Below the pieces are notes generated by a model. It was not told the DNA's origin, ran no database searches, and saw only the letters and a program-made list of their open reading frames with translations. Below are positions 141-48,737 of a stretch of 57,909 bases of DNA, one piece after another; position 1 is the first letter of the stretch; each line of letters opens with the position of its first letter. Origin of the DNA: Candidatus Kaiserbacteria bacterium (GTDB taxonomy: Bacteria > Patescibacteriota > Minisyncoccia > Phycocordibacterales > UBA918). The stretch covers positions 1-57,909 of the forward strand of contig JAYTKW010000022.1 in assembly GCA_043729945.1 (NCBI GenBank), read 5' to 3'. The position numbers were made by a program, and so were the translations under genes.

Positions 141-1241
141 TCAGTTTTCAGGGGTTATTTCTCTAACCAAAAGATTGGTGAGAAATGGCGCCATGGTATT
201 GGTAAATTCAGCGGCGCGGGCGGTTACTTCGCTTGCTAGGTTGCGGTTGAGGTCGATGCCGGTTTCTTCGGTAATCGTTGAATTTATATGGCTCAGTGAG
301 ATTGCGCGCAAGCTGCCAACACCATCAGTCGCGTCATTGCCCCGGGTGGTGATCATCCCAATGACCGCACCAGCACTATTTACCACCGGTCCACCTGAAG
401 CGCCTTGTTCACCCATGGAGCTGCCACGTAGGGCCACAACATCAGCCGTATTTTTGGTAAATGTGTACAGTTCCGAGATGCTGGTACTCGCTTGTCGTGA
501 CAATAAATCAATGTCACTTCCTCCCCGCAAGAGTGCTCCGGCTGGGTAGCCGGCGGCGATGACACTGCTATTGCGGTCACGGACAGATAGTGGACGGATA
601 TCCAGGGCAAGGGCGGGGAATACTACCGGCAACGGGCTCTCGTCAACTGTTTTTGTCACATACAAAAGAGCATAGTCACGTTCCCCGGTACCGCTTGGTG
701 CTTTGTCATCAATTAAGCTGGCGTTTGCCTTGACCCAGGCCGGCGGAATATACAAGAGTTCAGCGTGGTAGCGTGGAGCTGCGGGATTGCCAGTACGGAT
801 AATACAATTCGTATCCCCAAAAACCCCCGTATTTTCGAGTAACAGAAATTGTGCTACATGGGCATTGGTCATAATGATCCCGCTCGGGTGAGCAAAGAAC
901 CCCGTGCCGGTCGTGGTACGGATTTGTTTGCTGGTGATTGAAGTACAGTAGATATTTACAATCGCCAAGAGGGGATCACTGACCGTTTGCCAAACCGGCA
1001 GCTGACTTGCGGCGACGGCTGCTTGTTGATAGGCAGCACTTTGCAACAGAACGTCCGGTATAAAAGCCCGTTCAGAAAAAACAGAGGGCAGGGGTGCAAT
1101 ATCGCCAGGGACAGCGGCGGTGTCTGCAGCCAGCTCATTGCTTGGGTTCTCATACAAACTGAGTATGGTGCCCGCTAGAGTCGTCGTAAACGAGATATAG
1201 CTCAACACAATCGCCGATACAAACTGCAAAATAAATTCCAT
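141..1241 (-). CDS. Membrane-anchored trypsin-like (S1 fold) serine protease
   Basis: 366-aa ORF with an N-terminal hydrophobic segment. Triad motifs are TNAHV (His), RDYALL (Asp) and GASGGPV (Ser). Confidence 0.8.
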   Translation of the reverse strand: MEFILQFVSAIVLSYISFTTTLAGTILSLYENPSNELAADTAAVPGDIAPLPSVFSERAFIPDVLLQSAAYQQAAVAASQLPVWQTVSDPLLAIVNIYCTSITSKQIRTTTGTGFFAHPSGIIMTNAHVAQFLLLENTGVFGDTNCIIRTGNPAAPRYHAELLYIPPAWVKANASLIDDKAPSGTGERDYALLYVTKTVDESPLPVVFPALALDIRPLSVRDRNSSVIAAGYPAGALLRGGSDIDLLSRQASTSISELYTFTKNTADVVALRGSSMGEQGASGGPVVNSAGAVIGMITTRGNDATDGVGSLRAISLSHINSTITEETGIDLNRNLASEVTARAAEFTNTMAPFLTNLLVREITPEN

Positions 1242-1365
1242 AGAGGTAGTATATCACCCCGCCTATAGACGGTTCGGACTTATAAAACCCATAAAATCAG
1301 GCTAATTCTAGTTGATATTCTTTACTATGTCGGCTATACTAGCCGTCATAGCAAAGAAAGTAACC

Positions 1366-1436
1366 GCGGGTGTGGTTTAGTGGTAAAACGTCAGCCTTCC
1401 AAGCTGAATATCAGGGTTCGATTCCCTGCACCCGCA
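1366..1436 (+). tRNA. tRNA-Gly (anticodon UCC)
   Basis: 71-nt cloverleaf read by eye. Acceptor is GCGGGTG/CACCCGC and the D stem is GTTT/AAAC. The anticodon arm is TCAGC-CTTCCAA-GCTGA and the T arm is CAGGG-TTCGATT-CCCTG. CCA is not encoded. Confidence 0.9.
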
Positions 1437-1444
1437 CTGTTCAA

Positions 1445-1480
1445 TAAAATAACCACCCTGAAAGGGGTGGTTATTTTATT
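1445..1480 (+). terminator. Hairpin plus T-run after tRNA-Gly
   Basis: AAAATAACCACCC-TGAAA-GGGGTGGTTATTTT. Confidence 0.6.
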
Positions 1481-1486
1481 GGTACA

Positions 1487-1622
1487 GTGCGGAGTGCAGC
1501 AACCTGCTAGTAGCAGGTTGCGCAGGGAATCGAAGCCCGATTGAGCTGGATTGGAAGCGCAGCGCACCAATCCAGCCAATTGGGGTACTGAAGTCGTAGA
1601 CTTCGATTCCCTGCACCCGCCC
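1487..1622 (+). other. Structured element E1 ending in an exact 19-nt copy of the tRNA-Gly 3' end (candidate ncRNA, att-like site or MITE)
   Basis: 1602-1620 is identical to 1417-1435 (TTCGATTCCCTGCACCCGC). 1522-1535 (GCAGGGAATCGAAG) is the reverse complement of 1601-1614. It contains a 9-bp hairpin (1499-1521), a 10-bp hairpin (1545-1576) and a 6-bp hairpin (1590-1604). Confidence 0.45.
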
Positions 1623-1681
1623 ATCAAATCTATTTCTACTCACCACTAACTTGGGCTGGATTTTTTGGTATACTGCTCCAT

Positions 1682-2098
1682 ATGAAAACTGACTATATGG
1701 TAATTGGCAGAGTTCGTAATTCAACAAATATACTCAAGCTTGTAAAAAGTATAGAAGAAAATGGCTATAGTTGCTATAACTTTTTACATAAGCCAGTGAT
1801 AGCTGATAAAGCGGATCTATCATGGGAAGAACAAATGGAAATTCTCGAATCGCACACTGATTTTTGGAACGATCCAATCCATCGACATCATTTTGAAAAA
1901 GATATGGAAGGCTTAGCAAACGCCGATACCGTCGTTATGCTCCTGCCGTGTGGTAAAGCTGCTCATATGGAAGCTGGAGTTGCCTTTGGTTTAAAAAAGA
2001 GAATGGTTTTAATTGGCGAGGTTGAAAAGCCAGAAACCCTGTACCTTATGTTTACAGAACATTATCCAGATATAGAATCATTTTTGTTACGTATTTAA
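1682..2098 (+). CDS. Nucleoside 2-deoxyribosyltransferase-like (Rossmann-like) protein
   Basis: 138-aa ORF in AT-rich DNA. The C-terminal pattern ADTVVMLLPCGKAAHMEAGVAFGLKKRMVLIG resembles the NDT/Rcl family core. Recognised by eye only. Confidence 0.4.
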   Translation: MKTDYMVIGRVRNSTNILKLVKSIEENGYSCYNFLHKPVIADKADLSWEEQMEILESHTDFWNDPIHRHHFEKDMEGLANADTVVMLLPCGKAAHMEAGVAFGLKKRMVLIGEVEKPETLYLMFTEHYPDIESFLLRI

Positions 2099-2109
2099 AA
2101 CCGTTACTA

Positions 2110-2147
2110 ATATTGTAAGTAACTCGTGACCGATTCCCCGCATACGC
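2110..2147 (+). repeat. Partial copy of the 3' end of element E2
   Basis: ATATTGTAAGTAACTCGTGACCGATTCCCCGCATACGC aligns with ATATGCTTAGTAATTCGTGACCGATTCCTCTCACCCGC at 4100-4135, on the same strand. Confidence 0.6.
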
Positions 2148-2151
2148 GAAA

Positions 2152-2190
2152 GCCCGAACACAAAAGGAAGTGTTCGGGCAGGTTTTGCAA
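2152..2190 (+). terminator. Hairpin after the 1682-2098 gene
   Basis: GCCCGAACAC-N8-GTGTTCGGGC followed by a T-containing tail. Confidence 0.5.
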
Positions 2191-2261
2191 TAATTGTAAT
2201 CCATTATCCCACAAACATACGAGCAAAAACGGGCTACATCAATGGCGTACAAGAAGTCGAA

Positions 2262-2627
2262 TCAGTTAGTTTTCATGGAACTTAAGGGCGCTATCTCTAC
2301 TGAGCCAGTTTTAGTATCAGTGTAAGTCACAACACATGCTTCATAAAAATCGTTATCATATGTCACGCCCATGACATTGTTCCATTTATCCTTTACACCA
2401 CTAGATAGTGATTCACATTCCGCTTGTTTGATTTTTAATTCAGATAGAGCGTTATCTTTTTCCTGTTGTTGTTCAAATAATACTTGCTTTTGTTTTAAAA
2501 TGGTATTTTCTGCTTCCTGTTGTTTTTCTATAGAAGCTCTCTTATCAATTTGAACAAAATAAAATGATACTGCTAAGACAATACATCCTAAAACTATTGA
2601 AACAGGTATAGTTAGTTTATCGTTCAT
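2262..2627 (-). CDS. Hypothetical membrane-anchored coiled-coil protein
   Basis: 121-aa ORF with an N-terminal TM helix (IPVSIVLGCIVLAVSFYFV) followed by a Q/E/K-rich helix. Confidence 0.55.
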   Translation of the reverse strand: MNDKLTIPVSIVLGCIVLAVSFYFVQIDKRASIEKQQEAENTILKQKQVLFEQQQEKDNALSELKIKQAECESLSSGVKDKWNNVMGVTYDNDFYEACVVTYTDTKTGSVEIAPLSSMKTN

Positions 2628-2808
2628 TAAATGATTCTAACATTATCATTTTACCTATCAAGCATGTTTAAACGATTTTCCTGAAAAATTGTCTGGTTTC
2701 TTTTGGAGCAGTACGTCAGTGACAGAGAGTAATTTTTTGAGATATTGATTCACAAAGAAAAAATATTAGACTTTAATAATAAAAGAATCAATTACAACGC
2801 ACCTGTGG

Positions 2809-2857
2809 TCTGTGGATATAGAATTACGGGGAATTCCCGTAATTCTATATCCACAGA
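2809..2857. repeat. 22-bp perfect inverted repeat
   Basis: TCTGTGGATATAGAATTACGGG-GAATT-CCCGTAATTCTATATCCACAGA, followed by TTTTTT. Confidence 0.85.
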
Positions 2858-2980
2858 CTTTTTTGTCAATAGTTGTTGATCTTTTGGTGAGAAAGTGTAT
2901 AATGCTAATTAAGTATTGGAACGAGCTAGCTCTTAGGCTCAATCCTTCACAAAGCCTTCCTTCGGGAAGGCTTTGCACGT

Positions 2981-3802
2981 CTAGGGATGAATGACACAAC
3001 TATTTTTTGTTGTTCCACCGCACTTCGCTTTAAAAGCTTTCTCTTTAAGTAGAGTAATTACATCCAAATCAAACTGGGTTACTCCACCATACCCTAAAGA
3101 CTCACTGATTCTTGCATCAATGCTAAGGAAGTGTGAAGCAATGTCTGCCAATTGCGTCTCAGTATCGAGATTATTTTTTGTAACAAATGATATTGCAGTT
3201 AAATGTTCTCTGACTTTATGTCTAGTTAAACCCATAGAAGAGACTCCACCAAACATAATTTTATTGTAAGCAGACAAAATATCTCCATCTTGGTTCTCGT
3301 CAGCAGCCTCAACAATAATTTTGCCAGAACTGCTTTTTTTCGAAGAGCTCGTCAAATAACATAAGTATATGCACCATAATTCTAAAAAAGTTTTCTTAGT
3401 AAGATTTTTTTCATGCTTTGTAATTGCTGTACTAAATCCATTTGTGACCACATGCTGTATAGGAGGATTATTTTTTAGATAGGTCAGTTTATTTGTACCT
3501 ACCCACAAAAGTTTGAAGGTCGAACGTCGGATCCACTCTTTGAAATCGGTACAAAATTCAGCGTACTTCGCTGGATCACTAGCAAAATGAGCAAAATCTC
3601 CCTTTAGTTGACGAATTTCAGTGGCATGGAAATTTACTTTGGTTGTACCCCAGTACTTAAATTTTATTTGATCCGCTCTCCGTTTAATAAAATCATCCAT
3701 ATTTTCATGGACGATTATCCCTGCTACAGCAAAATGGGGTGCGTAGGGTGTTATATGAGTTAATGTATTTTTGCCTGACTCATCAATGTAGAGCTTGAAC
3801 AT
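2981..3802 (-). CDS. DUF3800-like protein
   Basis: 273-aa ORF. The N-terminal YIDESG motif and overall layout are typical of DUF3800. The DNA is AT-rich. Confidence 0.6.
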   Translation of the reverse strand: MFKLYIDESGKNTLTHITPYAPHFAVAGIIVHENMDDFIKRRADQIKFKYWGTTKVNFHATEIRQLKGDFAHFASDPAKYAEFCTDFKEWIRRSTFKLLWVGTNKLTYLKNNPPIQHVVTNGFSTAITKHEKNLTKKTFLELWCIYLCYLTSSSKKSSSGKIIVEAADENQDGDILSAYNKIMFGGVSSMGLTRHKVREHLTAISFVTKNNLDTETQLADIASHFLSIDARISESLGYGGVTQFDLDVITLLKEKAFKAKCGGTTKNSCVIHP

Positions 3803-3961
3803 TGATTACAATAGTAGCATTGTATTATGTACATGTAAAAATATGCTAATCAAACAGTGGAAGTTCCATCAGTGTGTAAAAAAGTTCTAACGTTGACCCA
3901 TAGCCCCGCACACATATGTTTCCGAAAAAGCCCTTTAAGGGGCTTTTTCGTTCGAAACATA

Positions 3962-4139
3962 GTGTACGGGTGAAGCAAGGTGCCTGCGCACCTTGCGGGA
4001 GGAATCGAAAGGCACAGGCATGTTTTAGCTCTTCCTAGAGCTAAAACAGCCGAGCCGGGGTCGAGGACACTTAGTAGATTATGAGCGGAGCGAACAAATA
4101 TGCTTAGTAATTCGTGACCGATTCCTCTCACCCGCACCA
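3962..4139 (+). other. Structured element E2 with the same architecture as E1, ending in a tRNA-like 3' end with CCA
   Basis: The 3' strand CGATTCCTC+TCACCCG (4119-4134) pairs with GAGGAATCG (3999-4007) and CGGGTGA (3967-3973). A 9-bp hairpin (3975-3996) sits at the same junction as in E1. There is an inner 11-bp hairpin at 4022-4047. The element ends CACCCGCACCA. Confidence 0.45.
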
Positions 4140-4281
4140 ATCGAGGTGATCAGGCAATTTTTCTACCGCATTAAACGGTTTACGTATTGAAAAATAAGCT
4201 TTTTCGACTTCAACTTCCAAGTTCTGAAATAGGTTTTTACGATTTCACGTTTTCGTAGCGTATCAGAAATTTCAGACTGGC

Positions 4282-5604
4282 TTATTGCTGTTTGGTCTGT
4301 GGGACTGTTGCATATGACATGGTAAGGAATGATTCTATTGCAGTGGAAAAATTTAATGTGACCACATCATCTTGTTGGGCAGGGTTTTGTAGAATGATGG
4401 TTTGGTTTTGTTGATCAATACCAATCATTGCGTACGCATGTTCACCCAAGAGTGCGCGTTCATTGCCTTCAAAGTCTACTACTGGATAGAACATTGGACT
4501 TGGATTGTTTAGAACTGATTGTTCTGATCTGGTTAATTCAGCTACAGCTGCTTTTTTCCTGAGTGCTGAGACGAATTGTATGGATTGATGAGATCCAAAG
4601 GTCACTATCGTTCTTTCGGGATCAAGATTTGATAAATATTCCCAAGCCGTATCCTTATGTTCAAAAAGAAATGTGCTTTCGACCATTTCTTTACCGAGCA
4701 ATGCTCCTATAACCTCTACAGATTCGCCACCTGTAGCGTTTTTCAATTCTGTAAATCGTCTTGGACCCAGCTCCATGTCATCATGAAAAAACCCAGTAGA
4801 CACACGCTCTAGGTATTCATTGAATGCCACCTCCAGGATAGTGTTTCCAAGATTGTTAGTCCGGGCAATCTTACCAGCTGCAGCGTAGCGAAGAATATCA
4901 TGTGTAGTAACATCTATATTTTCTGGTAAACCTGGAAAATTAACTTCAAACACACCGGATTGAACTTCGTTCACCATCGATCCGAGGACTTCTTTTGCTA
5001 ACCCAGGTTTACTTTGTAGGCTTAGCAATGTTGCTACCCAATAGCAGTTACCCCTACGTTGTTCAATCTCAAGATCTTCAACTGGGTTTTTAAAGAGAGC
5101 TGTATACATTTCGTCCGCAGTTAAGTTGCCACCTTCTGATCCTTTCTCAGATGAGATATGTGTCTTTGATAATTCTGGTGTTTGCGCTACTTGTTTGTTG
5201 AAGTGAATTCGAAGTTTTAGTAAGTCTTTATGCGCTTGTATATACTGCTCTTTGATTCGTTCGTATTTTTTACGCTTTTGTAACTCGAACGATATTCGCT
5301 CGACAAAACCCAAAACTCCAGTTGATTCAATTCGATATTCTTGCAAAAGATTACGGTAATAATCTAAATCAGCCACCCGCTCAGTAATTGAGTCAATAAT
5401 GGGTTGTAATACTTTGACATGCTCGGCATGCTTCTCTATCTGACTTAGTTCTTCTGGGTAAATGTTTCCGTAGAAGTAGCTCGCAAGTATTTCAGACAGA
5501 AACTTATGGTCACCAATTTGTTTTTCAGGATTGACCTCAGCATCAATAACGGCCACCATTTTTTCATGCGAAGATTTCCATATTGATGCGCCTTCTGCTT
5601 TCAT
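4282..5604 (-). CDS. Coiled-coil protein with a C-terminal calpain/papain-like cysteine protease domain
   Basis: 440-aa ORF. QRRGNCYWVATLLS resembles the calpain Cys motif GDCWLLAA, GEHAYAMIG resembles GHAYS, and LQNP resembles the Asn motif. Confidence 0.4.
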   Translation of the reverse strand: MKAEGASIWKSSHEKMVAVIDAEVNPEKQIGDHKFLSEILASYFYGNIYPEELSQIEKHAEHVKVLQPIIDSITERVADLDYYRNLLQEYRIESTGVLGFVERISFELQKRKKYERIKEQYIQAHKDLLKLRIHFNKQVAQTPELSKTHISSEKGSEGGNLTADEMYTALFKNPVEDLEIEQRRGNCYWVATLLSLQSKPGLAKEVLGSMVNEVQSGVFEVNFPGLPENIDVTTHDILRYAAAGKIARTNNLGNTILEVAFNEYLERVSTGFFHDDMELGPRRFTELKNATGGESVEVIGALLGKEMVESTFLFEHKDTAWEYLSNLDPERTIVTFGSHQSIQFVSALRKKAAVAELTRSEQSVLNNPSPMFYPVVDFEGNERALLGEHAYAMIGIDQQNQTIILQNPAQQDDVVTLNFSTAIESFLTMSYATVPQTKQQ

Positions 5605-5910
5605 GCAGTAAGTATATCATTTTCAGTAGTTGTAGAATCAAGTAAACGCCAATTAATAGTTCTAAATTCATCGAGTTTCTACATAGTCAATATGAAAAAC
5701 TGTCCCTAGGGACGTATTTCTGTTTTAATTGAAGATTCACAAAAATCATGTGACATATTTACACAGTTGGGTGGCACTGCGTTACACGTTACTCTCGAGA
5801 ACCCCACTACATATTACTTGCAGAATCTGGTTGACAAAATTCAATAGTTGCAAAATCACTGAGTAGTAACACTTGGATTGCTTCGTACCTCGCAATGACG
5901 TAGAGTTATC

Positions 5911-7398
5911 TTGTTTTCTATGAAAACCATCACCCTTAAAAACGTTAGTAAATCACTGGCACAAAAGACGTTATTTAGTGGTGCGTCGCTTTCGATCGGG
6001 CAGCGTGATCGGGTGGCAATTATTGGGAATAACGGGGCTGGGAAAAGTACTCTACTCAAAATCATGGCAGGTATTGAATCGGTTGATGAAGGAGAAGTGT
6101 TGGGTAATCAGTCCGTTGCCTACATTGCCCAAGAATTTGGTGGGGATATGTCCCGAACGGTAGCCGAGTATCTGGCAGCGCAAAAGGTAGTTGCCAATAT
6201 ACATGCGATTATCAAAAAGTTTGGCATCATCAGTCCGCAATTGATGGAACAGGGAACGTTGTCTGAACTCTCGGGTGGGCAGTTGCGGGCTCTCGAAATC
6301 GCCGCAGTTATATCGCGCGGGCCGATGTTTCTCTGTATTGATGAACCGGAAAACCATCTCGATATTAAAGCCCGGCACGTTGTCACTGAATTACTGCGGG
6401 ATTATTGGGGGGCGGTCATTATGGTCTCTCATGATCATACGCTGATAAATAACCTGACCAAGAAAATAGTTTTGATTGAACACGAGGCGGTGACAGTTAC
6501 AACGGATCTGACCTACGAGGAGCTCGTTGAGGAGCGACTGCGGCGGCAAGATCTGGCACAGCATGAGTATCTGATGGCCAAACGGAAACTAACAAAAATG
6601 ACGAATCTCGTCACCGAGTTACGAAGGCAAACCACCTTTAGTGACAGTAAAGCCAAAACCTACCAAATGAAAAAGCGTCAGCTGGCGGTGGATCAGGAAG
6701 CTATTGATACAATGGTGAGGCCGGATACTCGAAAGCCCGAAGTTCGCATCGGGGACGTCGAGCAAAAGAACGGGAAACTCATTGTGCAGTTACATGACGT
6801 CAGTGGTGGCTACGGCGCCACGCCGCTGTTTTCAAAAGTAAACCTAGATATTCGGTTTGGGCAGAAACTCTGTATTGTAGGGCGTAATGGCGCCGGCAAG
6901 ACGACACTCCTCGGGCTCATTACGGGAGCGGTGGCTCCATTGTCTGGAGTAGTCCGCAGGGGAGTGTCTATTACGACCGTAGTATTTAGCCAACAGAGTG
7001 AAATGATACTCGAACATACGCCGTTTGAGTTGTTTGCCACTATTGGGATTTCCAAAGACCCGGCCCGATCAATCCTCAGTCGACTCTTATTTTCCAAAGC
7101 AGAAATGGATATGATTGCTGAACGCTTATCGGGGGGTCAAAAGCAACGACTCCGTTTGGCGCTACTGTTTTTTGCGAAACCGGATTTTATTATTTTGGAT
7201 GAACCAACGAATAATCTCGATCCAATCAATTGGCAGTTTCTAGTTGAGCTCCTGACGGAGTTCGAGGGGACAGTCATCTGTGTGACCCATGATCAGTCGT
7301 TTATCGAGTCGATTGATGAGTTACTGATTTTTGTGCTCGCAAAAAAGACGGTCACACGCGTATGGGGTACGGTCGACGAGGCGATTGCTCTATTATAG
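5911..7398 (+). CDS. ABC-F family ATPase (two ABC domains, no TM domain)
   Basis: Walker A GNNGAGKST and GRNGAGKTT; signatures LSGGQ (twice); Walker B IDEPENHLD and ILDEPTNNLD. Confidence 0.85.
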   Translation: MFSMKTITLKNVSKSLAQKTLFSGASLSIGQRDRVAIIGNNGAGKSTLLKIMAGIESVDEGEVLGNQSVAYIAQEFGGDMSRTVAEYLAAQKVVANIHAIIKKFGIISPQLMEQGTLSELSGGQLRALEIAAVISRGPMFLCIDEPENHLDIKARHVVTELLRDYWGAVIMVSHDHTLINNLTKKIVLIEHEAVTVTTDLTYEELVEERLRRQDLAQHEYLMAKRKLTKMTNLVTELRRQTTFSDSKAKTYQMKKRQLAVDQEAIDTMVRPDTRKPEVRIGDVEQKNGKLIVQLHDVSGGYGATPLFSKVNLDIRFGQKLCIVGRNGAGKTTLLGLITGAVAPLSGVVRRGVSITTVVFSQQSEMILEHTPFELFATIGISKDPARSILSRLLFSKAEMDMIAERLSGGQKQRLRLALLFFAKPDFIILDEPTNNLDPINWQFLVELLTEFEGTVICVTHDQSFIESIDELLIFVLAKKTVTRVWGTVDEAIALL

Positions 7399-7401
7399 AA
7401 T

Positions 7402-8469
7402 TTATAAAAAAGCTACGTCTAACAGTGCTTCTTTGACCTTGTTAAAAGCACCCGCATCCATTGGTCGGTGGGGGTAGATTCTGTTAGAGAGGATAGCAAA
7501 TCCCCTATGATTTTTTAGGTCAGCTGACATAAAACAGCCTGTAAAGCCGCTCTTTACCACCATCTCTCTATGGTACGTATCTATTAAGATATTATTCAAA
7601 TCCCCCCATCCAATAGGTGTATGGGTTGGCAAAAGTTTTGGGTAATAGTCCTCGGTCCATTTTGAAACAATAGTGCTGCTAAAGATTGGTTTTTTATTGT
7701 ATTCACCGCCGTGCAAGGCTACTTTCAAGAATTGAGTTATATCATTTATTGAAGCAAATAAACCAGCGGCCCCATTTGAAATCCCTCCCTTAGTGGTATA
7801 GAAAGTGAATTCATCATGTACAAAGCCCCTCACCTCACCGCGATCGTTCGTCAGTTCAGTAGGTGGTATTAAGGACTTGGTTTTTGATGAGGGAAAAAAT
7901 GTAGCCGTGGACATTTCAAGTGGGGTAAACACATAGTCTTTCACTAGAGTATAAAAATTTTCACTTGTAACACGTTCTATTATTTGAGTAAGTATAAAAG
8001 CCGTAATATTAGAATACATGTAGTTCGTACCCGGCAAGGCTTTTAAAGGGTATGACAAAGCATTGTGAGCAACTTGTTCAGGCGAGAGAGTCCCAAACAA
8101 AGATTTAGAGCCACCAGGAATGTTGTAGTCCATCGTATACGTCATAAGATGTGATAATAACGCCTCCCCTTTTTCTGGTTGGTTTACGAATTCAGGTAAA
8201 TACTTACTTATTTTCTCATCTAAATTTAAGATACCTTTATCTATTAAAATCATAGCAACCGCCATTGGGGCTATAATTTTAGTCAGAGATGCGCAGTCGT
8301 ATATCGTTGAAGTATGGACCTGGCTAGCATTGAGTTCATATGTAAAATGACCATAACCTTGGGAAAAGCAAGTGTCTTCGTTTAGAAATACAATTGAACA
8401 TCCAGGGAATACCTTCGAAGCGATAGCGGTTTCAATTATTGCTTCAAATTGTTTTATTTTGCTAGGCAT
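7402..8469 (-). CDS. Serine hydrolase of the class C beta-lactamase / PBP-like family
   Basis: 355-aa ORF with an SxxK motif (SLTK) and a YxN motif (YSN). The DNA is AT-rich. Confidence 0.7.
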   Translation of the reverse strand: MPSKIKQFEAIIETAIASKVFPGCSIVFLNEDTCFSQGYGHFTYELNASQVHTSTIYDCASLTKIIAPMAVAMILIDKGILNLDEKISKYLPEFVNQPEKGEALLSHLMTYTMDYNIPGGSKSLFGTLSPEQVAHNALSYPLKALPGTNYMYSNITAFILTQIIERVTSENFYTLVKDYVFTPLEMSTATFFPSSKTKSLIPPTELTNDRGEVRGFVHDEFTFYTTKGGISNGAAGLFASINDITQFLKVALHGGEYNKKPIFSSTIVSKWTEDYYPKLLPTHTPIGWGDLNNILIDTYHREMVVKSGFTGCFMSADLKNHRGFAILSNRIYPHRPMDAGAFNKVKEALLDVAFL

Positions 8470-8698
8470 AGGAATATTTTACCTCACATTTGAAATATTC
8501 AGCATTTTTATAACTTTACATAGTTTGTGGCGTCTCTTAAAAAGCAAAACACCCCGGCTGAGGAGTGTCTTACTTTGTGATGGGAAATAGCGAAGATTAC
8601 TCTCTGATTTCCACATAGCGTTTTACCTCCGCTACCATATTATTATACCACGAGGTGCTGGAAATTAAGTGTGGAAAAACATTATCTGGCGGCAAAAG

Positions 8699-8732
8699 AA
8701 AACAACTGTGGGCCAAAGCCCACAGTTGTTTT
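8699..8732 (-). terminator. Terminator downstream of hup
   Basis: AACAACTGTGGGC-CAAA-GCCCACAGTTGTT with a T-run on the minus strand. Confidence 0.7.
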
Positions 8733-8744
8733 CGAACATTTTAG

Positions 8745-9020
8745 TTAGCCCTTTACAGAATCCTTGAGTCCCTTGGCAGCGCGGAATTTTGGCACACGCA
8801 TCGCTGGTACTGGTACAGTCTCTCCGGTTCGTGGGTTACGAGCCTCACGAGCAGCACGCATTTTAGCTTCGAAAATACCGAAGCCAGCGATTGAAACTTG
8901 GCCTCCATCTTTCATCTCTGATTCGATGTTACCAAATACGGCTTCAACAGCTCGTTCTGCATCTGCTTTGGTAGTACCGAGAACTTCGTGCACCTTGGCG
9001 ATAATATCTGCTTTGTTCAT
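8745..9020 (-). CDS. hup: HU-family DNA-binding protein
   Basis: 91 aa with a canonical HU pattern: MNKADII...GFGIFE...ARNPRTGE. Confidence 0.9.
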   Translation of the reverse strand: MNKADIIAKVHEVLGTTKADAERAVEAVFGNIESEMKDGGQVSIAGFGIFEAKMRAAREARNPRTGETVPVPAMRVPKFRAAKGLKDSVKG

Positions 9021-9466: not shown

Positions 9467-10996
9467 TTAACGGGCGTAACTGACCACTCGTGTCTCTCTA
9501 ATCACGTGGACTTTGATTTCACCGGGGTACCGTAATTGGGTTTCGATGGTAGTGGCGATAGTACGGGCGAGAGTGTGCGTAGCAAATTCGGTCATATTGG
9601 CCGGGTTTACAATCACCCTAATCTCGCGACCAGCTGCAATGGCAAAGGCTTTTTCAACTCCTTCGAGGTTGGTGGCGATGGCTTCTAGGTCAGTCAGGCG
9701 CTTGATATAGTTTTCAATTGAATCACGACGAGCACCAGGACGTGAGCCAGATAGAGAGTCACAAACCTGCACAATGAGTGATTCGGGTGTTTCGTAGGGG
9801 TACTCTTCGTGGTGGGCGCGCATGGCGAGAATGACTTTCTCATCCACGTTGTATTTTTGTAAAATACGGATACCGATTTCAACGTGAGTACCGGCGACTT
9901 CATGACTGACGGTTTTACCGATGTCGTGGAGGAGGGCACCAGCTCGCGCTACGGCTACATCAGCTCCAACCTCTTCGGCAATGATCGCCGCCATATGGGC
10001 CATCTCCACCGAGTGCCACAGGACGTTTTGTCCGTAACTTGTCCTAAAGTGTAGGCGACCGATGATGGAAACGAGATCAGGGTGCAGATTGGGGACGTTG
10101 GCATCGTAACAGGCTTTTTCGCCCATTTTACGGACACTCTGGGCTACTTCACGCCGCGCCAATTCGACGGCTTCTTCAATTTTGGCAGGTTGGATGCGAC
10201 CGTCTTTCATCAGGGCTTCGAGTGCTACTCGGGCGATCTCTCGCCTGATGGGGTCAAATGACGACAGGACGATATAGCCAGGGGTTTCATCGATTAACAC
10301 ATCAACTCCCGTAGCACGTTCAAACGCTCGCACGTTACGCCCTTCCTTGCCGATAATCTTTCCTTTAAGATCGTCGCTTGGGATTTCAACGTTGCTCGTC
10401 ATGACACTTGTTGGCATGACGTTACCAATTCGGTGAATAGCAGCGAGTAGAATGTTGGTGGCTTTCGCTTCAATCTGTTCGTTTCCAAACAGTTCAATTT
10501 TCTGGATGCGAGCGGTCAGGTCTTCGGCTCGTTCACGTTCCACTCGGTCACTGATACGGGCAAAGGCTTCGGCAGCTGTCAGTCCCGCAACTGTCTCGAG
10601 TTTGGCGTCGAGCTCTCCCTTTCGTTCATCCAGTCTGGCTTTAAAACCTTTTACTTCTTCAATTTTATTTTGTAGGGACTCTTTTTGGGAATCAGCGTCG
10701 ATTTGACGACTATCTAAAAGCTCCTCGCGTTTCTGGAGGTGTGATTCCTTTTGGTTCAATTTTTCTGTCTGGGCGTTTCGTTCTGCGCGAGCTTCGGTAA
10801 TGGTAGCTGCAGCTTTGGCTTCTGCTTTTTCGATAATTTTTAGCGCTTTCTCCTCGGCATCGAGTAGTCGTTCTTTGATCGTAATTTCAATCGAAGACTT
10901 TTTGGAATGGGCGTGTAAATACCGTAAGTAGTAGCCAGCTGCCACACCCATCCCGAGAGCTGCCGCTACAATGGCGAGCAACACAAATGGAGGCAT
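9467..10996 (-). CDS. rny: Ribonuclease Y
   Basis: 509 aa with an N-terminal TM, coiled coil, KH motif GKIIGKEGRN and HD motif LLHDIGK. Confidence 0.9.
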   Translation of the reverse strand: MPPFVLLAIVAAALGMGVAAGYYLRYLHAHSKKSSIEITIKERLLDAEEKALKIIEKAEAKAAATITEARAERNAQTEKLNQKESHLQKREELLDSRQIDADSQKESLQNKIEEVKGFKARLDERKGELDAKLETVAGLTAAEAFARISDRVERERAEDLTARIQKIELFGNEQIEAKATNILLAAIHRIGNVMPTSVMTSNVEIPSDDLKGKIIGKEGRNVRAFERATGVDVLIDETPGYIVLSSFDPIRREIARVALEALMKDGRIQPAKIEEAVELARREVAQSVRKMGEKACYDANVPNLHPDLVSIIGRLHFRTSYGQNVLWHSVEMAHMAAIIAEEVGADVAVARAGALLHDIGKTVSHEVAGTHVEIGIRILQKYNVDEKVILAMRAHHEEYPYETPESLIVQVCDSLSGSRPGARRDSIENYIKRLTDLEAIATNLEGVEKAFAIAAGREIRVIVNPANMTEFATHTLARTIATTIETQLRYPGEIKVHVIRETRVVSYAR

Positions 10997-18216: not shown

Positions 18217-18597
18217 ATATATGTAGGGTGAGGTATTCCTCATTAGTTGTAAATCGTCCTGCCAGCCGTCACTTTTGGACAAAGAACGCGCGGGCAAGCG
18301 CCCGCGCGGAAGTCCCTTATAATATACCCCAAACCCTAAAAAGTGCAAATGAAAGGTACCCCTTTCTTTGCACACCGTTTCTAAAGTATTATCAATTAGA
18401 AACAAAATATGGCAAAACAAGGATTTAGAATTGCGGTTGAAATCAAAAACGAGATTATCAGTAAACTCAAAATTAGTTAACTCTAACAGTTCGGACTCAC
18501 TTCACCGTTTGCATGCCGTACAGGGGTCTCACGTTACTCTCTCCGTGATTTCTTTGGGTTGGTATGTAGTCGGTGAAGTGAGATATTTGAGGTTAGA

Positions 18598-19737
18598 TTA
18601 TACCGATGATTCAGGTAGTAAAATGTCCAAGTACGTATCCGGATTCATGACAGTGTAGGTGGCTAAGGGGTAGGTGGTGGTAAATAGCTTGGGGGCTTTG
18701 GGGATTTTTTTGGTTCCCCATTTGCATTCGTAGCCGGTGAGGGCTCCATTATGTTCTCGGACGATGTCGACTTCTTGGCCCTGATGGGTGCGCCAGAAAT
18801 AGAAGGTGCTATTTATATCTGCCAAGTTGTCTTTTTTTAGTAACTCCATAAAACAGAAATTTTCCCAGAGGGCACCAACATCTGACCGTGATGACAGTGG
18901 ATTAAACTGTCCAATAACTGCGTTACGAATACCATTATCAAGAAAATAGTACCGAGCTTTTTGGGTAATTTCATTTCGTAAATTACGACTAAATCCTCCA
19001 ACTCGTTTAATAACAAACATTTTTTCGAGTAAATCCAAATACCGTCCCACAGTTTGTACACTTGTGTTAAGGGCATTAGAAATTTCGTTGAGAGAAACAT
19101 CGTGTCCGATTTGCAGGGCTATCATCTTTGCAATATTACGGAGGAGTTCGGGTGACTTGATACCTTCAATCGCGAGGGCGTCCTTATATAGGTAGGAAGA
19201 GGCAAGTTCGCTTAGAAGCTTCTCTTTTGCACTAGTGTTGGGAGCAAGAAGAACTTCGGGATATGATCCGTACAGTAAAAACGTTTCAAGATTATTTCGC
19301 ACCTCAAATACGTTGGCCTGCATCTCAGACTGGGCGAGCGGGAGGAGGGTGAGTGTAAAGTGGCGGCCGGTGAGAGGTTCGCCAACTTCTGATGCCAAAT
19401 ACAGAGATGAAGAACCGGTCAGGATGAGTGTTTTTTCTGGAAACGCATCTACTAACATTTTTGCACCGATTCCAATGTGTGGTATTTGCTGAGCTTCATC
19501 AATAGCGATTAGGGTGTACTTTTGTGCAAAATCTTTAATATCAGATAGATATTGTCGAGAAAACGCGTCGCGCACTCGCCCGTCGTCACCATTGGCAAAA
19601 AAAGAGGTCTGAGGAGGTTGTTTTTGTAGGAATGTACTTAAGAGCGTCGTTTTTCCAATTCGTCTTGGTCCATAAATAATGAGGGCTCTTTTAGGATACA
19701 GCTCGGCTTCAATTGATTGTTTTCGAGTGAAATTCAT
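18598..19737 (-). CDS. AAA ATPase with a DUF4143-type C-terminal domain
   Basis: 379 aa with Walker A GPRRIGKTT and Walker B IAIDEAQ. The DNA is AT-rich. Confidence 0.7.
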   Translation of the reverse strand: MNFTRKQSIEAELYPKRALIIYGPRRIGKTTLLSTFLQKQPPQTSFFANGDDGRVRDAFSRQYLSDIKDFAQKYTLIAIDEAQQIPHIGIGAKMLVDAFPEKTLILTGSSSLYLASEVGEPLTGRHFTLTLLPLAQSEMQANVFEVRNNLETFLLYGSYPEVLLAPNTSAKEKLLSELASSYLYKDALAIEGIKSPELLRNIAKMIALQIGHDVSLNEISNALNTSVQTVGRYLDLLEKMFVIKRVGGFSRNLRNEITQKARYYFLDNGIRNAVIGQFNPLSSRSDVGALWENFCFMELLKKDNLADINSTFYFWRTHQGQEVDIVREHNGALTGYECKWGTKKIPKAPKLFTTTYPLATYTVMNPDTYLDILLPESSV

Positions 19738-27818: not shown

Positions 27819-28939
27819 TGTGTATGAAATCAATTGTTGATTGTCCGGAACTACGAGGAAAGTATGTCTTGGTGCGCTCATCGTGTAACGTGCCAGTCAC
27901 AGACGGAGTCGTACAAAATGCCTATCGGTTAAAACGAGCCCTTCCCACCCTCCAATTTTTACACGCTGCCGGCGCCCGCGTGATTGTAGTAGCCCACATT
28001 GGTCGTGACGAATCCGATACTCTGAAACCAGTCTACGAGGTTTTTTTGAATTTGATCGGGGTGCAGTGGGGAGGATCAATCGGGAGTGCCGAGTTTACCG
28101 CCGCTTTGTCTCGTTTGGCTGACGGAGACATTGTCATCGCCGAAAACCTCAGACAAGATCCCCGTGAAGTCGGTAACGACGCTGGATTTGCCGCAGAGCT
28201 TGCTGCGCTCGCTGATATCTACGTTGATGATGCCTTTGATAATATCCACCGGGACCACGCGTCGATGGTCGGTGTGCCAGCGCTCTTGCCTGCCTATGCC
28301 GGCATTACCCTCAAGGAAGAAGTGACCGAACTAACGAAAGCCATGGAACCAGCTTCCCCAGCCCTCCTCATTTTAGGTGGAGCTAAATTTGAAACTAAAA
28401 TGCCGCTCGTTGAAAAATATCTCGATTTGTATGATAACGTTTTTGTAACAGGGGCGCTCCTTAATGATATCCTCAAAGCCGAAGGACACGAGGTCGGGCA
28501 GTCACTCGTATCTGACATTTCACTCAAAGGTGCAGATTTCCTCTCGAGTGCGAAATTAATTCACGCCATTGATGTGGTAGTAACAAGCGACCGCGGTATG
28601 CGAACGGCGAGCATTGATGACGTCCAGTCTGACGAAAAAATTACCGACATGGGACCGCTCACGATTGGCGCCCTAGCCCCGTACATAAAAGACGCTGCCA
28701 CCATCCTCTGGAATGGACCGCTTGGACTCTATGAGTCTGGTGTCGCCGGAGGTACTCACGCCGTGGCGAAACTGATTGCTGACGCTCCAGGGTATAGTAT
28801 CATCGGCGGCGGGGACACCGTAGCCGCGATTGAAGATTTAGGGCTCAATGATCAGTTTGGGTTCGTCTCAATTGGTGGTGGCGCGATGCTTACCTTGCTC
28901 GAACATGGGACTACCCCCGCCCTCGAAGCCCTCGAGTAA
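27818..28939 (+). CDS. pgk: Phosphoglycerate kinase
   Basis: 373 aa with the PGK N- and C-domain pattern (GGAKF, GGGDT). The start overlaps the tpiA stop (TAATG). Confidence 0.88.
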   Translation: MCMKSIVDCPELRGKYVLVRSSCNVPVTDGVVQNAYRLKRALPTLQFLHAAGARVIVVAHIGRDESDTLKPVYEVFLNLIGVQWGGSIGSAEFTAALSRLADGDIVIAENLRQDPREVGNDAGFAAELAALADIYVDDAFDNIHRDHASMVGVPALLPAYAGITLKEEVTELTKAMEPASPALLILGGAKFETKMPLVEKYLDLYDNVFVTGALLNDILKAEGHEVGQSLVSDISLKGADFLSSAKLIHAIDVVVTSDRGMRTASIDDVQSDEKITDMGPLTIGALAPYIKDAATILWNGPLGLYESGVAGGTHAVAKLIADAPGYSIIGGGDTVAAIEDLGLNDQFGFVSIGGGAMLTLLEHGTTPALEALE

Positions 28940-28940
28940 A

Positions 28941-29230
28941 ACTTCCATAAACGGCGAACTTCGTCGTTGCCCGTCGGTAAAATACTCCTCACCGTGAGAA
29001 AGTCTGGGAGACTTTCGCAAGAGGTTGTCGCTCTTTTGAAAAAAAGAGCGACAACCTGAACAGCTTCTGTAAGAAGCGGAAAGTACGGCTCGTTCTATTT
29101 TCCTTTCTCCTCTGACAGCGGCTGTACACCTTGTCACTTATTTGTTTCGGTATTTACCTCACAAATAAGTAGGCAAGGTCTTGCGGAAGCTAGTCGCTTC
29201 CTCACTCGAATTTCACTCATTTCTGAAAGT
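28941..29230. mobile_element. MITE-like element copy carrying a nested second repeat type inside its central loop
   Basis: The termini (ACTTCCATAAACGGCGAAC / TTTCACTCATTTCTGAAAGT) match those of 25425-25541. The core CTCACCGT...GTACGGCTC is split by about 90 nt that is homologous to 47936-48030. Confidence 0.6.
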
Positions 29231-29282
29231 TCTAAGAGTCTAGAATAACAAAACTCGTTCGGTCTAACTGAGCGAGTTTTGT

Positions 29283-29696
29283 TTAGGCGAGTTGATTTCG
29301 CAGTAGTTGTGCGATGTCTGCCAAAGTCTCGTCAGGAGCCTCCGTGCTTGAAATAAGTGCTCGACTGAGATTGTGATCTGTTGTAGGCATTGGATATATT
29401 TTGATATGGACGTGAGGTACTTCAAAACCTTCAATAACGAGACAAGTACGTTCGGCAGAAAATGCTCGGTCGGATGCTTGTGCGATTTTCTTTGCTACTG
29501 CAAAGAGATGAAGATACGTTTCATTATCTAAATCAAAGACGTAACTCACTTCTTGTTTCGGAATGACTAACGACTGGCCGTGAATTCCAGGAAATTTATC
29601 AAGGATACATATACAGTACTCATCCTCATACACGATGTGTGCTGGGATTTCGCGGTTGATGATACGGGTGAAAATTGAGGGTTGTGCGATTGTCAT
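29283..29696 (-). CDS. HIT-family nucleotide hydrolase/transferase (variant motif HVHIK)
   Basis: 137 aa starting at MTIAQPSIFTRII. The histidine-triad region reads PHVHIKIYP. Confidence 0.75.
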   Translation of the reverse strand: MTIAQPSIFTRIINREIPAHIVYEDEYCICILDKFPGIHGQSLVIPKQEVSYVFDLDNETYLHLFAVAKKIAQASDRAFSAERTCLVIEGFEVPHVHIKIYPMPTTDHNLSRALISSTEAPDETLADIAQLLRNQLA

Positions 29697-47866: not shown

Positions 47867-47893
47867 TTGCCGTACTCATACGTAGTAGTAAGT

Positions 47894-47935
47894 ATGACAA
47901 AAACAGCTATTTTCGCAGGAGGATGTTTCTGGGGT
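47894..47935 (+). repeat. Exact 42-nt duplicate of the msrA start (ATG plus 13 codons), running into a stop after 16 codons
   Basis: Identical to 48048-48089. Reads MTKTAIFAGGCFWGEQ*. Confidence 0.9.
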
Positions 47936-48047
47936 GAGCAGTGACTAAATGTCACTGCGCAAGAGGTTACCAGCTCGTTTGAAAAACGAGCGATAACCTG
48001 AACAGGTTCTGTAAGAACTGGAAGAGCTTGTAATGCAATAAAAATCT
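47936..48047. repeat. 112-nt repeat-type insert (same family as the nested segment at about 28995-29090)
   Basis: CGCAAGAGGTT..hairpin..AACCTGAACAGGTTCTGTAAGAACTGGAAG aligns with CGCAAGAGGTT..AACCTGAACAGCTTCTGTAAGAAGCGGAAAG. Confidence 0.7.
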
Positions 48048-48539
48048 ATGACAAAAACAGCTATTTTCGCAGGAGGATGTTTCTGGGGTATGGAAGACCT
48101 CTTTCGGGATCTCCATCCCGGCATCCTAACTACCGAAACGGGTTACACCGGTGGTACCAATGAAAACCCTACCTACGAAAATCATCCCGGCCATGCCGAA
48201 GCATTACTGGTGGAGTATGATGATGCAAAAATTGCGTACACAGAATTACTAGATTTCTTTTTCCGAGTGCATAATCCCACCACCCTTAATCAGCAAGGAA
48301 ACGACCTGGGCACGGCTTATCGTTCAGCGATTTTTTATCAAGATGAAAGCGAACGCGTAGCCGCTGAATTATTTATTGATCTGGTAAATGAATCAGCTCG
48401 TTGGGAGGCTCCTGTAGTCACCACGCTCGAACCGTTCACTAGATTCTGGTCAGCCGAAGACTATCACCAAGATTATTTACAAAAGAATCCACATGGATAT
48501 ACCTGCCACGCAATTCGATTTGAGAGCTATTTAGTGTAA
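48048..48539 (+). CDS. msrA: Peptide methionine (S)-sulfoxide reductase
   Basis: GGCFWG active-site motif; 163 aa. Confidence 0.9.
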   Translation: MTKTAIFAGGCFWGMEDLFRDLHPGILTTETGYTGGTNENPTYENHPGHAEALLVEYDDAKIAYTELLDFFFRVHNPTTLNQQGNDLGTAYRSAIFYQDESERVAAELFIDLVNESARWEAPVVTTLEPFTRFWSAEDYHQDYLQKNPHGYTCHAIRFESYLV

Positions 48540-48655
48540 TTTTGGAGTATAGGGATGGCTAAACCTTACAGGTTCTGTCCACTCATTGGACTTTTTATCT
48601 CGCTTCGCTCATAAAAATCCTCAATGAGTCTTGCGAAATGCTCCCAGCATTTCTC

Positions 48656-48694
48656 ACCTGCCATGCCATCAGGTTTGATAGTTATTTAACCTAA
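48656..48694 (+). pseudogene. Diverged duplicate of the last 12 codons of msrA plus the stop
   Basis: TCHAIRFDSYLT* versus TCHAIRFESYLV* at 48501-48539. 29/39 nt are identical, and most differences are at third codon positions. Confidence 0.75.
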
Positions 48695-48737
48695 AGTTAG
48701 CAAGACAAGGTGGGTGAAACTGTTGTATTATATAGAT

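Follow-up and report, generated by a model that had tools for sequence, protein, structure and literature searches.

Folded repeats bearing copies of tRNA 3′ ends in Patescibacteria: candidate small mobile elements downstream of tRNA genes

What kind of element carries, directly downstream of a transfer RNA (tRNA) gene, the end of that gene once in direct and once in inverted orientation? The question is raised by contig JAYTKW010000022.1 of a Candidatus Kaiserbacteria bacterium, of which positions 1-57,909 (57,909 nt, hereafter the window) were analyzed. One such element, E1, follows the tRNA-Gly(TCC) gene, and another, E2, is located at 3962-4139 on the + strand. Both belong to a family of small folded repeats that occupies the DNA immediately 3′ of tRNA genes in Paceibacteria-type Patescibacteria. 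No such elements were described in the literature searched, and the family is apparently new to it. We propose, with middling confidence, that its members are small non-autonomous mobile DNA that enters the 3′ ends of tRNA genes by way of a single strand in folded form.

The elements are non-coding and 135-180 nt in length. A full copy begins with a terminator hairpin, P0, after which come the last ~20 nt of the tRNA in inverted orientation, a core, and those ~20 nt once more in direct orientation; a hairpin of 8-9 bp (P2) splits the inverted copy at the acceptor/T-stem junction in most complete copies. Pairing of the inverted with the direct copy on the + strand (P1 and P3) closes the core into a rod. 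The core is swappable and belongs either to type A, as in E2, or to type B, as in E1. Every feature that the first-pass annotation, made from the letters of the window, had assigned to E2 was found in its place by checks of sequence, fold, and coordinates, with two corrections: the partner of CCTCT(C) in E2 is GGGAGG, one G.U pair included, and position 1 of the acceptor strand is an A mismatched to C. A further feature, absent from that annotation, is that the 5′ edge of E2 doubles as the right arm of an upstream palindrome (3904-3970). The palindrome of P0 in E1 likewise reaches outward, on the left into the acceptor 3′ strand of the tRNA and on the right into the acceptor-complement of E1. 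The predicted minimum free energy (MFE) of E2 is -80.7 kcal/mol, as against -51.5 +/- 4.3 for its dinucleotide shuffles (z -6.8, 0/200), and that of E1 is -79.4 kcal/mol (z -9.3).

E1 and E2 share 51.5% identity overall and 39% in the inner part, with the same order of helices, and this together with the covariation described below bears out the proposal that structure rather than sequence is conserved. The outer helices, which had been read as compensatory between E1 and E2, do not show independent co-evolution of their strands, as both strands copy one tRNA 3′ end; true compensatory change is located in P2, P4, and P5. In MFE predictions, 18 of 18 copies folded into one plan comprising the outer helix P1, the branch hairpin P2, the helix P3, and the hairpins P4 and P5. 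For type B, 92.7% of the alignment cells held a standard pair as compared to 70% in column shuffles, and changes on both sides were observed for 33 of 51 pairs; for type A, the corresponding values were 89.7% and 74%, with both-side changes in 25 of 43 pairs. The observed values were reached by none of 500 shuffles for either type, and controls in which the type-B pairing was slid gave at most 47% paired cells. Conserved unpaired motifs of type B are AAG, GUACUG, and a GUA triloop, while type A conserves a GGA/GA internal loop and GGGGUCG...CGUGACC, in which a G.U pair is kept in seven of eight copies. The + strand was predicted to be more stable than the - strand in 17 of the 18 copies, by 4.7 kcal/mol on average, so that the fold belongs to one strand, the sense strand of the tRNA. 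The folded strand could be either single-stranded DNA or RNA.

The family was initially traced with an exact pattern derived from the P2/T-complement junction, scanned over species-representative genomes. This returned nine loci, all in metagenome-assembled genomes (MAGs) of Patescibacteria (Paceibacterota, Kaiserbacteria, and others), eight of which lay directly after a tRNA gene. A route to relatives that avoids the bias of this pattern was provided by homologues of the serine-protease gene beside the tRNA; an exact match to the neighboring protease yielded the same strain only, and relatives were reached through more distant homologues. The gene order trigger factor, ClpP, RNase Y, HU, variable DNA, tRNA-Gly(TCC), and protease was found to be kept, and in four of four independent relatives a full element was present right after tRNA-Gly(TCC), with P2 of other sequences carrying compensatory changes (GAAACCTGC, GTAACCTGC, GGAAGTGC, and GTAAAGCGC). 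Other tRNA genes on the same contigs also carry elements, only the last gene doing so within a tRNA cluster, and across the examined contigs the majority of stand-alone tRNA genes have an element. Together, the pattern scan and the search by synteny revealed ~25 further elements in Patescibacteria MAGs (individual loci are denoted below by L numbers). The family implied by the first-pass annotation thus exists, and its homologues keep the pairing (89.7% of cells in the type-A and 92.7% in the type-B alignment). Nineteen elements are placed directly 3′ of a tRNA gene, all of them co-oriented with it, at nine isoacceptor types (Gly-TCC, Gly-GCC, Pro-TGG, Pro-GGG, Ala-CGC, Arg-CCT, Arg-GCG, Phe-GAA, and Lys-CTT). 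A scan of metagenomes with the 17-base pattern GCANNTTGCGNNNGGAATCGAA gave mostly chance matches in coding DNA, the true ones among the matches listed being L019, L050, and L094 only.

The arms of an element follow the tRNA beside which it is placed. When the last 19 nt of the tRNA were compared with the element arms locus by locus for the 19 tRNA-linked elements, the direct copy showed 0-4 mismatches per 19 nt in 15 of 19, and the inverted copy (acceptor and T parts together) 0-3 mismatches in most, as compared to 5-9 mismatches for the tails of non-cognate tRNA types. In the window, the last 19 nt of tRNA-Gly(TCC) (1417-1435) recur exactly at the 3′ end of E1 (1602-1620). Even a rare T-arm variant, GATTACCCC, in tRNA-Gly(GCC) of L140 is mirrored by GGGTAATC in its element. 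Acceptor strands are truncated or mismatched in many copies (L010, L094, L138, L140, L142, and position 1 of E2). The tRNA genes beside elements (e.g., window 1436-1440) encode no CCA: the discriminator and one C form their end, after which come an A-rich trailer and a terminator. In contrast to these adjacent genes, which break off at the first C, six element 3′ strands run on to a full ACCA, and at the tRNA-Pro gene of L142 the terminator known from the same locus of L140 lies behind the right-hand copy. These two observations suggest, as far as sequence comparison goes, that the right-hand copy is the displaced original gene end and that the left-hand end, together with P0, was brought by the element.

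The arms also bear on the history of E2. Its arms are identical at 19 of 19 positions to the tail of tRNA-Gly in L013 and L138 and differ at three positions from tRNA-Gly of the window. The left arm of its P0 begins with CCCCGCACAC, which aligns to the last 8-9 nt of the tRNA-Gly gene and trailer in L013/L138, and the P0 region with the preceding 8-9 nt is homologous to the tRNA end, trailer, and terminator of those loci. Since arms and P0 match tRNA-Gly of L013/L138 and not that of the window, E2 is a displaced, imported copy of foreign origin lying inside a low-GC (guanine plus cytosine) island. The difference between the outer helices of E1 and E2 is accounted for in the same manner, as E1 copies tRNA-Gly of the window and E2 the allele of L013/L138. 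The additional copy of the E2 3′ end reported at 2110-2147 is real and slightly longer than was noted: 2106-2147 shows 79% identity over 42 nt to 4094-4135, and the type-A profile (nhmmer) matches 2107-2147 with E = 2.5e-5 at profile positions 121-161. It comprises the end of P5 and a direct tRNA-end-like copy, CGATTCCCCGCATACGC, which matches exactly neither the local tRNA nor E2.

Several arrangements point to turnover of the elements. Tandem full copies were found in L012, and a full copy with one or more 3′-half remnants after it in L010, L006/L019, L094, L138, L140, and the window; some remnants carry the arms of a different tRNA. Displaced copies, in which P0 and only the last ~2-10 nt of the tRNA are kept, are represented by E2, L008, tRNA-Pro of L010, L143, and L147. 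L140 and L142 have the 5′ module in common and differ in their cores (type A and type B, respectively). Near-identical type-B cores are present at tRNA-Gly(TCC), tRNA-Gly(GCC), and tRNA-Pro with different arms, and one of them holds a nested core. Small, non-coding, and multi-copy, the elements amount to six copies or fragments plus four solo cores within 58 kb of the window, and to several per contig in L140 and L142. L140 also contains, at 18480-19014 on the - strand, an array of three elements with arms from yet another tRNA (CGAGTCCCTCCGGGTGCACCA), the first of which is devoid of P2; the inner arm of the second pairs with the acceptor end, CCA, and trailer instead of the T arm, so the target register can shift.

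Cores are also found without tRNA arms. A search of the window with the covariance model of type B identified four such solo cores, each composed of P2, CGCAAGA, P4, GNACAG, and P5 with a GUA loop, and further ones are present in relatives. Two cases show core elements behaving like mobile DNA. In the trigger-factor/ClpP spacer, a solo core in L142 is matched by an uninterrupted site in L140, i.e., presence and absence between close relatives. At the 5′ end of msrA, perfect direct repeats of 43 bp (47893-47935 and 48047-48089) enclose the solo core at 47934-48032. The repeat corresponds to the first 42 nt of msrA and one preceding base and flanks a solo core of 111 bp; the upstream duplicate would encode a 16-residue peptide only, and the downstream duplicate starts the real gene. 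Two inverted solo cores, this one (+) and 48548-48666 (-), bracket msrA (48048-48539) in the manner of a composite unit, and the 3′ tails of the convergent cores 28994-29082 (+) and 29098-29211 (-) overlap as reverse complements. Solo cores occur in both orientations relative to the flanking genes, which argues against a cis-acting mRNA element. The features of the window are compiled in Table 1.

Table 1. Positions of the tRNA gene, the elements and their parts, the solo cores, and the low-GC island in the window
Feature	Position	Strand	Basis or remark
tRNA-Gly(TCC)	1366..1437	+	ARAGORN; Rfam tRNA 78 bits; repeat family D1
P0 of E1, terminator-like hairpin, arms 1442-1458/1465-1481	1438..1486	+	inverted repeats I8, I4
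E1, type-B element	1487..1623	+	fold; covariance model 147.7 bits; coordinates; covariation
E1 acceptor-complement	1489-1497	+	
E1 P2, GCAACCTGC/GCAGGTTGC	1499-1521	+	same junction as P2 of E2
E1 T-complement	1522-1535	+	
E1 P4	1536-1584	+	
E1 GTACTGA	1585-1591	+	
E1 P5, GTA triloop	1592-1602	+	
E1 direct tRNA-end copy	1603-1620	+	
Low-GC island	1622..5900	.	composition profile; Pfam; synteny with relatives
Truncated 3′ end of another type-A element	2106..2147	+	D2 repeat; nhmmer to type-A profile
P0 of E2, terminator-like palindrome	3904..3970 (palindrome 3906-3970)	+	comparison with L013, L138
E2, type-A element	3962..4139	+	fold z -6.8; type-A profile E = 1e-42; alignment and covariation
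E2 acceptor-complement CGGGTGA	3967-3973	+	sequence
E2 P2, 9-bp hairpin GCAAGGTGC-CTGC-GCACCTTGC	3975-3996	+	sequence
E2 T-complement GGGAGGAATCG	3997-4007	+	sequence
E2 P4 with GGA/GA-type internal loop	4011-4056	+	inner hairpin 1
E2 P5, long, conserved G.U	4059-4118	+	inner hairpin 2
E2 3′ strand, direct tRNA-end copy CGATTCCTCTCACCCGC, then ACCA	4119-4135, ACCA 4136-4139	+	
Solo core, convergent with 29098-29211, intergenic spacer	28994..29082	+	covariance model 31 bits, E = 1e-5
Solo core	29098..29211	-	covariance model 34.1 bits, E = 1.6e-6
Solo core, P2-CGCAAGA-P4-GAACAG-P5 (GUA loop), no tRNA arms	47934..48032	+	covariance model 32.9 bits, E = 3e-6
Solo core just downstream of msrA, inverse to 47934-48032	48548..48666	-	covariance model 62.5 bits, E = 1.5e-13; nhmmer

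On the basis of these observations, we infer mobility of the tRNA-linked form, a single-stranded intermediate, and an enzyme acting on it. The integration site would be the T-loop-to-acceptor segment of tRNA genes. The incoming element would supply a replacement tRNA 3′ end and its own terminator, and the original tRNA end would be pushed to the far side, where it becomes the 3′ strand of the element. A double-stranded attachment (att) site has no need of an inverted copy; its presence makes sense if the target is replicated, as a duplex, by the fold of one strand, which may then serve as the recombination substrate as in integron attC and CTX-phage attP sites. In a circular single strand, the sole copy of the tRNA end could pair with the inverted copy, leaving P0 and the core at opposite ends, and integration of that circle would yield the observed order of direct, inverted, and direct copies. 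Repeated insertion would generate arrays, the older copies of which lose their palindromic 5′ part. For the window, we accordingly propose that E2 originated at a tRNA-Gly(TCC) gene in a different lineage and came in as part of the foreign DNA of the low-GC island, and that 2106-2147 represents what decay has left of the 3′ end of an additional copy.

A number of results weigh against this interpretation. No recombinase, transposase, or reverse transcriptase was detected by Pfam in any of the seven proteins of 1-8.5 kb, nor among the best 25 of 40 Pfam families for the 31 other open reading frames (ORFs) of the window. A transposase-like Pfam family, such as would point to a Y1 HUH or RAYT partner, was likewise absent from that set and from the Pfam results for loci of 8-19 kb, and no integrase was found at any tRNA-linked copy examined, the tRNA being flanked by the serine protease gene in all protease-reached relatives. 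No free circular, phage, or plasmid form was found either with four patterns in viral contigs (chance matches only, none with the fold) or by BLAST in phage and plasmid collections (no match). An empty site of the tRNA-linked form was not seen in any relative examined, a filled/empty pair being available for the solo core only, and the occupancy of tRNA-Gly(TCC) is universal among the relatives examined, as would be the case for a functional tRNA-like RNA. The conserved unpaired motifs (GUACUG, AAG, the GUA loop, and the GGA/GA loop), the CCA ends, and the + strand bias would be no less expected of a functional RNA. Flanking direct repeats measure about 6, 17-30, 43, or about 85 nt, and such varied lengths are a poor fit to one simple site-specific crossover. 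The msrA case resembles, from its sequence, duplication of a long target more than it does a site-specific crossover; this core was searched for a stretch complementary to the duplicated target, and none was found, so the idea of a folded target replica misses some members. Finally, the tRNA-element module is inverted in some relatives, which places the variable genes on the 5′ side of the tRNA there.

The strong covariation with conserved unpaired nucleotides would also be expected if E1 and E2 encoded a structured non-coding RNA ending like a tRNA, an explanation that we regard as possible though unlikely. In such an RNA, P1 would be a 7-bp acceptor stem, P3 a stacked T-stem extended through the T-loop, and P2 would be placed where the D and anticodon arms leave the tRNA, with the discriminator and CCA forming the end. 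Maturation could be by RNase P and the tRNA 3′-end machinery, and the product could act as a decoy, sponge, or partner of tRNA or acceptor-T-arm enzymes, solo-core mobility being a side issue. The emergence of P2 exactly at the acceptor/T junction, the encoded ACCA at the six element 3′ ends as against adjacent tRNA genes without it, the strand bias, the conserved G.U pair, and the element after tRNA-Gly(TCC) in every relative examined are all in agreement with this. However, in most loci P0 with its T-run, resembling an intrinsic terminator, is interposed between tRNA and element, which argues against simple + strand co-transcription, and there is no space for a promoter of its own; a scan for promoters on the + strand gave no convincing candidate immediately before E1 or E2. 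Mobile DNA typically forms arrays, remnants, foreign arms, and nested copies such as those seen here, the acceptor strands are truncated or mismatched in many copies, and armless solo cores are found in either orientation. The interposed terminator, the mixed orientation of solo cores, and the truncated arrays weigh against a simple + strand RNA gene. No Rfam family matched E1 or E2 with the threshold relaxed to E <= 10: Rfam 15, applied with gathering and E-value cutoffs to the whole window and to 1300-4300, 47850-48750, and 28900-29300, returned only tRNA and chance-level microRNA, CRISPR, and small nucleolar RNA matches. Decayed tRNA genes or pseudogenes are essentially excluded. The 3′ strand equals a tRNA 3′ end and the 5′ acceptor-complement corresponds to tRNA positions 1-7, but D arm, anticodon arm, and T hairpin are missing; all that exists of a tRNA is its last ~20 nt, in one direct and one inverted copy, with the T-loop paired to its own inverted copy, and the non-tRNA parts are conserved across loci. 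ARAGORN (which found only 1366-1437) and the Rfam tRNA model at E <= 10 were blank at E1 and E2. Transfer-messenger RNA (tmRNA) was rejected on negative ARAGORN and Rfam results, the only weak match being that of the permuted-tmRNA model to the T arm of tRNA-Gly (15.7 bits against a cutoff of 47). When the core was compared by eye with hammerhead ribozymes (CUGANGA...GAAA), with the ends and domain V of group II introns, and with attC boxes, it showed partial likeness only; the resemblances (GUGCG at the 5′ edge, CUGA, and GAGCCG) appear to be due to the tRNA complement or to fail the remaining consensus.

Direct repeats of the tRNA 3′ end, some extending a few nt beyond the gene (L007, 26 nt; L012), a low-GC island adjoining the tRNA, and tandem accretion could also be read as attL/attR scars left by double-stranded integrative elements (phage, integrative and conjugative elements, or cis-mobilizable elements, CIMEs) with a tyrosine integrase, the hairpins being incidental and the cargo deleted. 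A Phage_integrase gene 1.5 kb from one displaced copy (L147) is consistent with this. We consider the explanation improbable, as double-stranded att arms need no inverted 20-nt core copy, no integrase was found at the tRNA-linked copies examined, and strand-biased, covarying hairpins kept across species despite sequence turnover would be unexpected; so would near-identical cores with different tRNAs and arms on one contig if the att site were specified by a protein. In L147, the gene in question encodes a Xer-sized tyrosine recombinase of 309 residues (7722-8651), the displaced type-B element (10146-10276) keeps the last ~10 nt of the tRNA (TGGGGGCACA), and this is the only recombinase seen near any element. 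Likewise improbable, in our view, is a passive by-product of faulty replication at tRNA terminators, whereby fold-back or template-switch copying creates the direct, inverted, and direct repeats and inserts stray hairpin DNA, and conversion between palindrome arms, not function, keeps the helices. The inverted copy is indeed contiguous with the right arm of the terminator palindrome, the flanking duplications are long and variable (43 nt at msrA; about 85 nt at tRNA-Pro of L142), and microhomology is present at the insertion site of a solo core. Such copying does not readily account for the recurrence, at nine tRNA types and in MAGs of Paceibacterota, Kaiserbacteria, and further Patescibacteria, of one ordered set of parts, with P2 at a single precise junction and a type-A or type-B core bearing conserved unpaired motifs, or for P4 and P5, which covary yet are not arms of a tRNA palindrome. 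Mobile DNA with a folded single strand hence remains the interpretation that we prefer.

The low-GC island (35-42% GC as compared to ~50% in the flanks) carries small accessory genes (nucleoside-deoxyribosyltransferase-like, DUF3800, and calpain-like) and no core genes, and also holds E2 and the element fragment. The proposal that E2 and the fragment bracket accessory DNA stands in part. The two do lie in this island, and arrays made up of intact and truncated elements are present at the same hotspot in relatives; however, the module is inverted in some of these, and the DUF3800 gene is not consistently tied to an E2-like element. This gene was considered as cargo of E2 and rejected, as its homologues share the hotspot or adjoin another displaced element without forming a fixed unit with an E2-type element. 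The interval from the protease/tRNA-Gly to HU (window 1240-8745; also L134, L138, L140, L142, and L143) is a hypervariable hotspot, ranging from ~0.6 kb without genes (L134) to >8 kb (L143, with DNA methyltransferases and DUF3800), with accessory genes differing per relative. The module of tRNA-Gly(TCC) and element is inverted between HU and protease in L134, L138, and L013 relative to the window, L140, L142, L009, and L010. Within the island, 2808-2858 contains an inverted repeat of 23 bp, perfect and with 5 nt between its arms, and a T-run behind it, with strong promoter-like hexamers on either side (2869-2842 on the - strand and 2876-2903 on the + strand); by its sequence, it looks like a bidirectional terminator or an operator between divergent or convergent units. 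Housekeeping genes account for the remaining ORFs of the window. Among them, within 12-58 kb, are ComEC (Competence, DUF4131) and the genes for the ATPase and platform of a type IV pilus, which makes uptake of single-stranded DNA plausible in this organism.

Patescibacteria have tiny genomes in which gene gain and loss are poorly understood, and the elements mark a hypervariable hotspot between housekeeping genes. If mobile, they would constitute an abundant, unannotated class of tRNA-targeting DNA with apparently self-encoded target recognition, bearing on genome plasticity in the candidate phyla radiation (CPR), and could offer a programmable principle of integration; if RNAs, they would represent a new, widespread class of tRNA-mimicking RNA. 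A more specific proposal, which we put forward tentatively as possible though unlikely, is that they are the attachment module of a target-templated integration system, in which the folded single-stranded DNA, or its RNA, presents a 20-nt replica or complement of the tRNA end and thereby steers insertion. Under that proposal, arms rewritable for nine or more tRNA types would imply that specificity resides in nucleic-acid pairing and not in the recombinase, and the tRNA genes of competent, genome-reduced CPR bacteria would be integron-like platforms for the capture of small accessory genes. In a variant drawn by analogy, the split 20-nt complement could act like a retroviral primer-binding site for mature tRNA, which would explain the CCA-bearing copies. 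Irrespective of mechanism, long perfect or near-perfect palindromes and repeats beside tRNA genes can break assemblies and confuse predictors of tRNAs and genomic islands.

In comparison with known systems, the elements combine familiar themes, namely, tRNA-end targeting, hairpin recombination sites, and miniature inverted-repeat transposable element (MITE)-like repeats, in an arrangement that was not found described. Integron attC sites and the attP sites of CTX-type phages, which use host Xer recombinases, are imperfect inverted repeats of which a single strand folds into a duplex recombination site. The present elements resemble them in being foldable imperfect inverted repeats with strand-specific folding, in keeping structure and not sequence, in the variable terminal structure between the arms, in having the site intact at one end of the inserted unit, and in accumulating as arrays of units beside a fixed chromosomal site. 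They differ in that the arms are copies of tRNA 3′ ends which change with the neighboring tRNA. The end boxes of attC are R″ (RYYYAAC) and R′ (GTTRRRY); here, neither these nor dif-like arms are present, and the closing helices are tRNA-derived (CGGGTGA...TCACCCG and similar) and vary between tRNAs. A whole hairpin (P2) interrupts one strand, whereas attC has single extrahelical bases, and unlike in integrons or CTX, most units are geneless and neither an IntI gene nor a dif target was noted (window proteins and the best 25 of 40 families for the 31 ORFs).

REP/REPIN elements are mobilized by RAYT transposases, and IS200/IS605 has hairpin-ended non-autonomous derivatives; in IS200/IS605, bases inside the element act as guides, pairing within single-stranded DNA both with the flanking target and with the end of the element. 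With these and with MITEs the present elements share small size, non-coding and hairpin-rich sequence, multiple intergenic copies, nesting, and polymorphism between relatives, presence and absence being observed for the solo core (L142 versus L140). In contrast to fixed terminal inverted repeats and fixed duplications, they bear target-derived arms of ~20 nt that follow the tRNA, or no arms in solo cores, and long, variable flanking repeats (about 6-85 nt), and no transposase partner was identified in the window and loci. In Escherichia coli tyrT, 178-bp downstream repeats contain the last 19 nt of the tRNA. Such enterobacterial repeats are similar in carrying direct copies of the last ~19 nt downstream of the gene; to our knowledge, they have no inverted copy, conserved hairpin core, or spread over many tRNA types. 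With tmRNA, viral 3′ tRNA-like structures, mascRNA, and YrlA Y RNAs, the elements share an acceptor-like helix on a T-stem-like helix and, in some copies, the discriminator and CCA; they differ in the paired loop (no T-loop fold), in having no D-loop or elbow and no Rfam match, and in the upstream terminator.

Among tRNA-targeting integrative elements, tycheposons form island arrays (Hackl et al., bioRxiv 10.1101/2020.12.28.424599). The likeness to tRNA-targeting elements, to their derivatives without cargo (CIMEs), and to tycheposons comprises insertion at the tRNA 3′ end, a direct repeat of that end bounding the inserted DNA, restoration of the tRNA by element sequence, tandem accretion, decaying remnants, and small accessory genes nearby. 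The elements described here are set apart from these by their size of only about 135-250 bp without an element-encoded integrase, by the extra inverted copy of the target, and by a covarying multi-hairpin fold.

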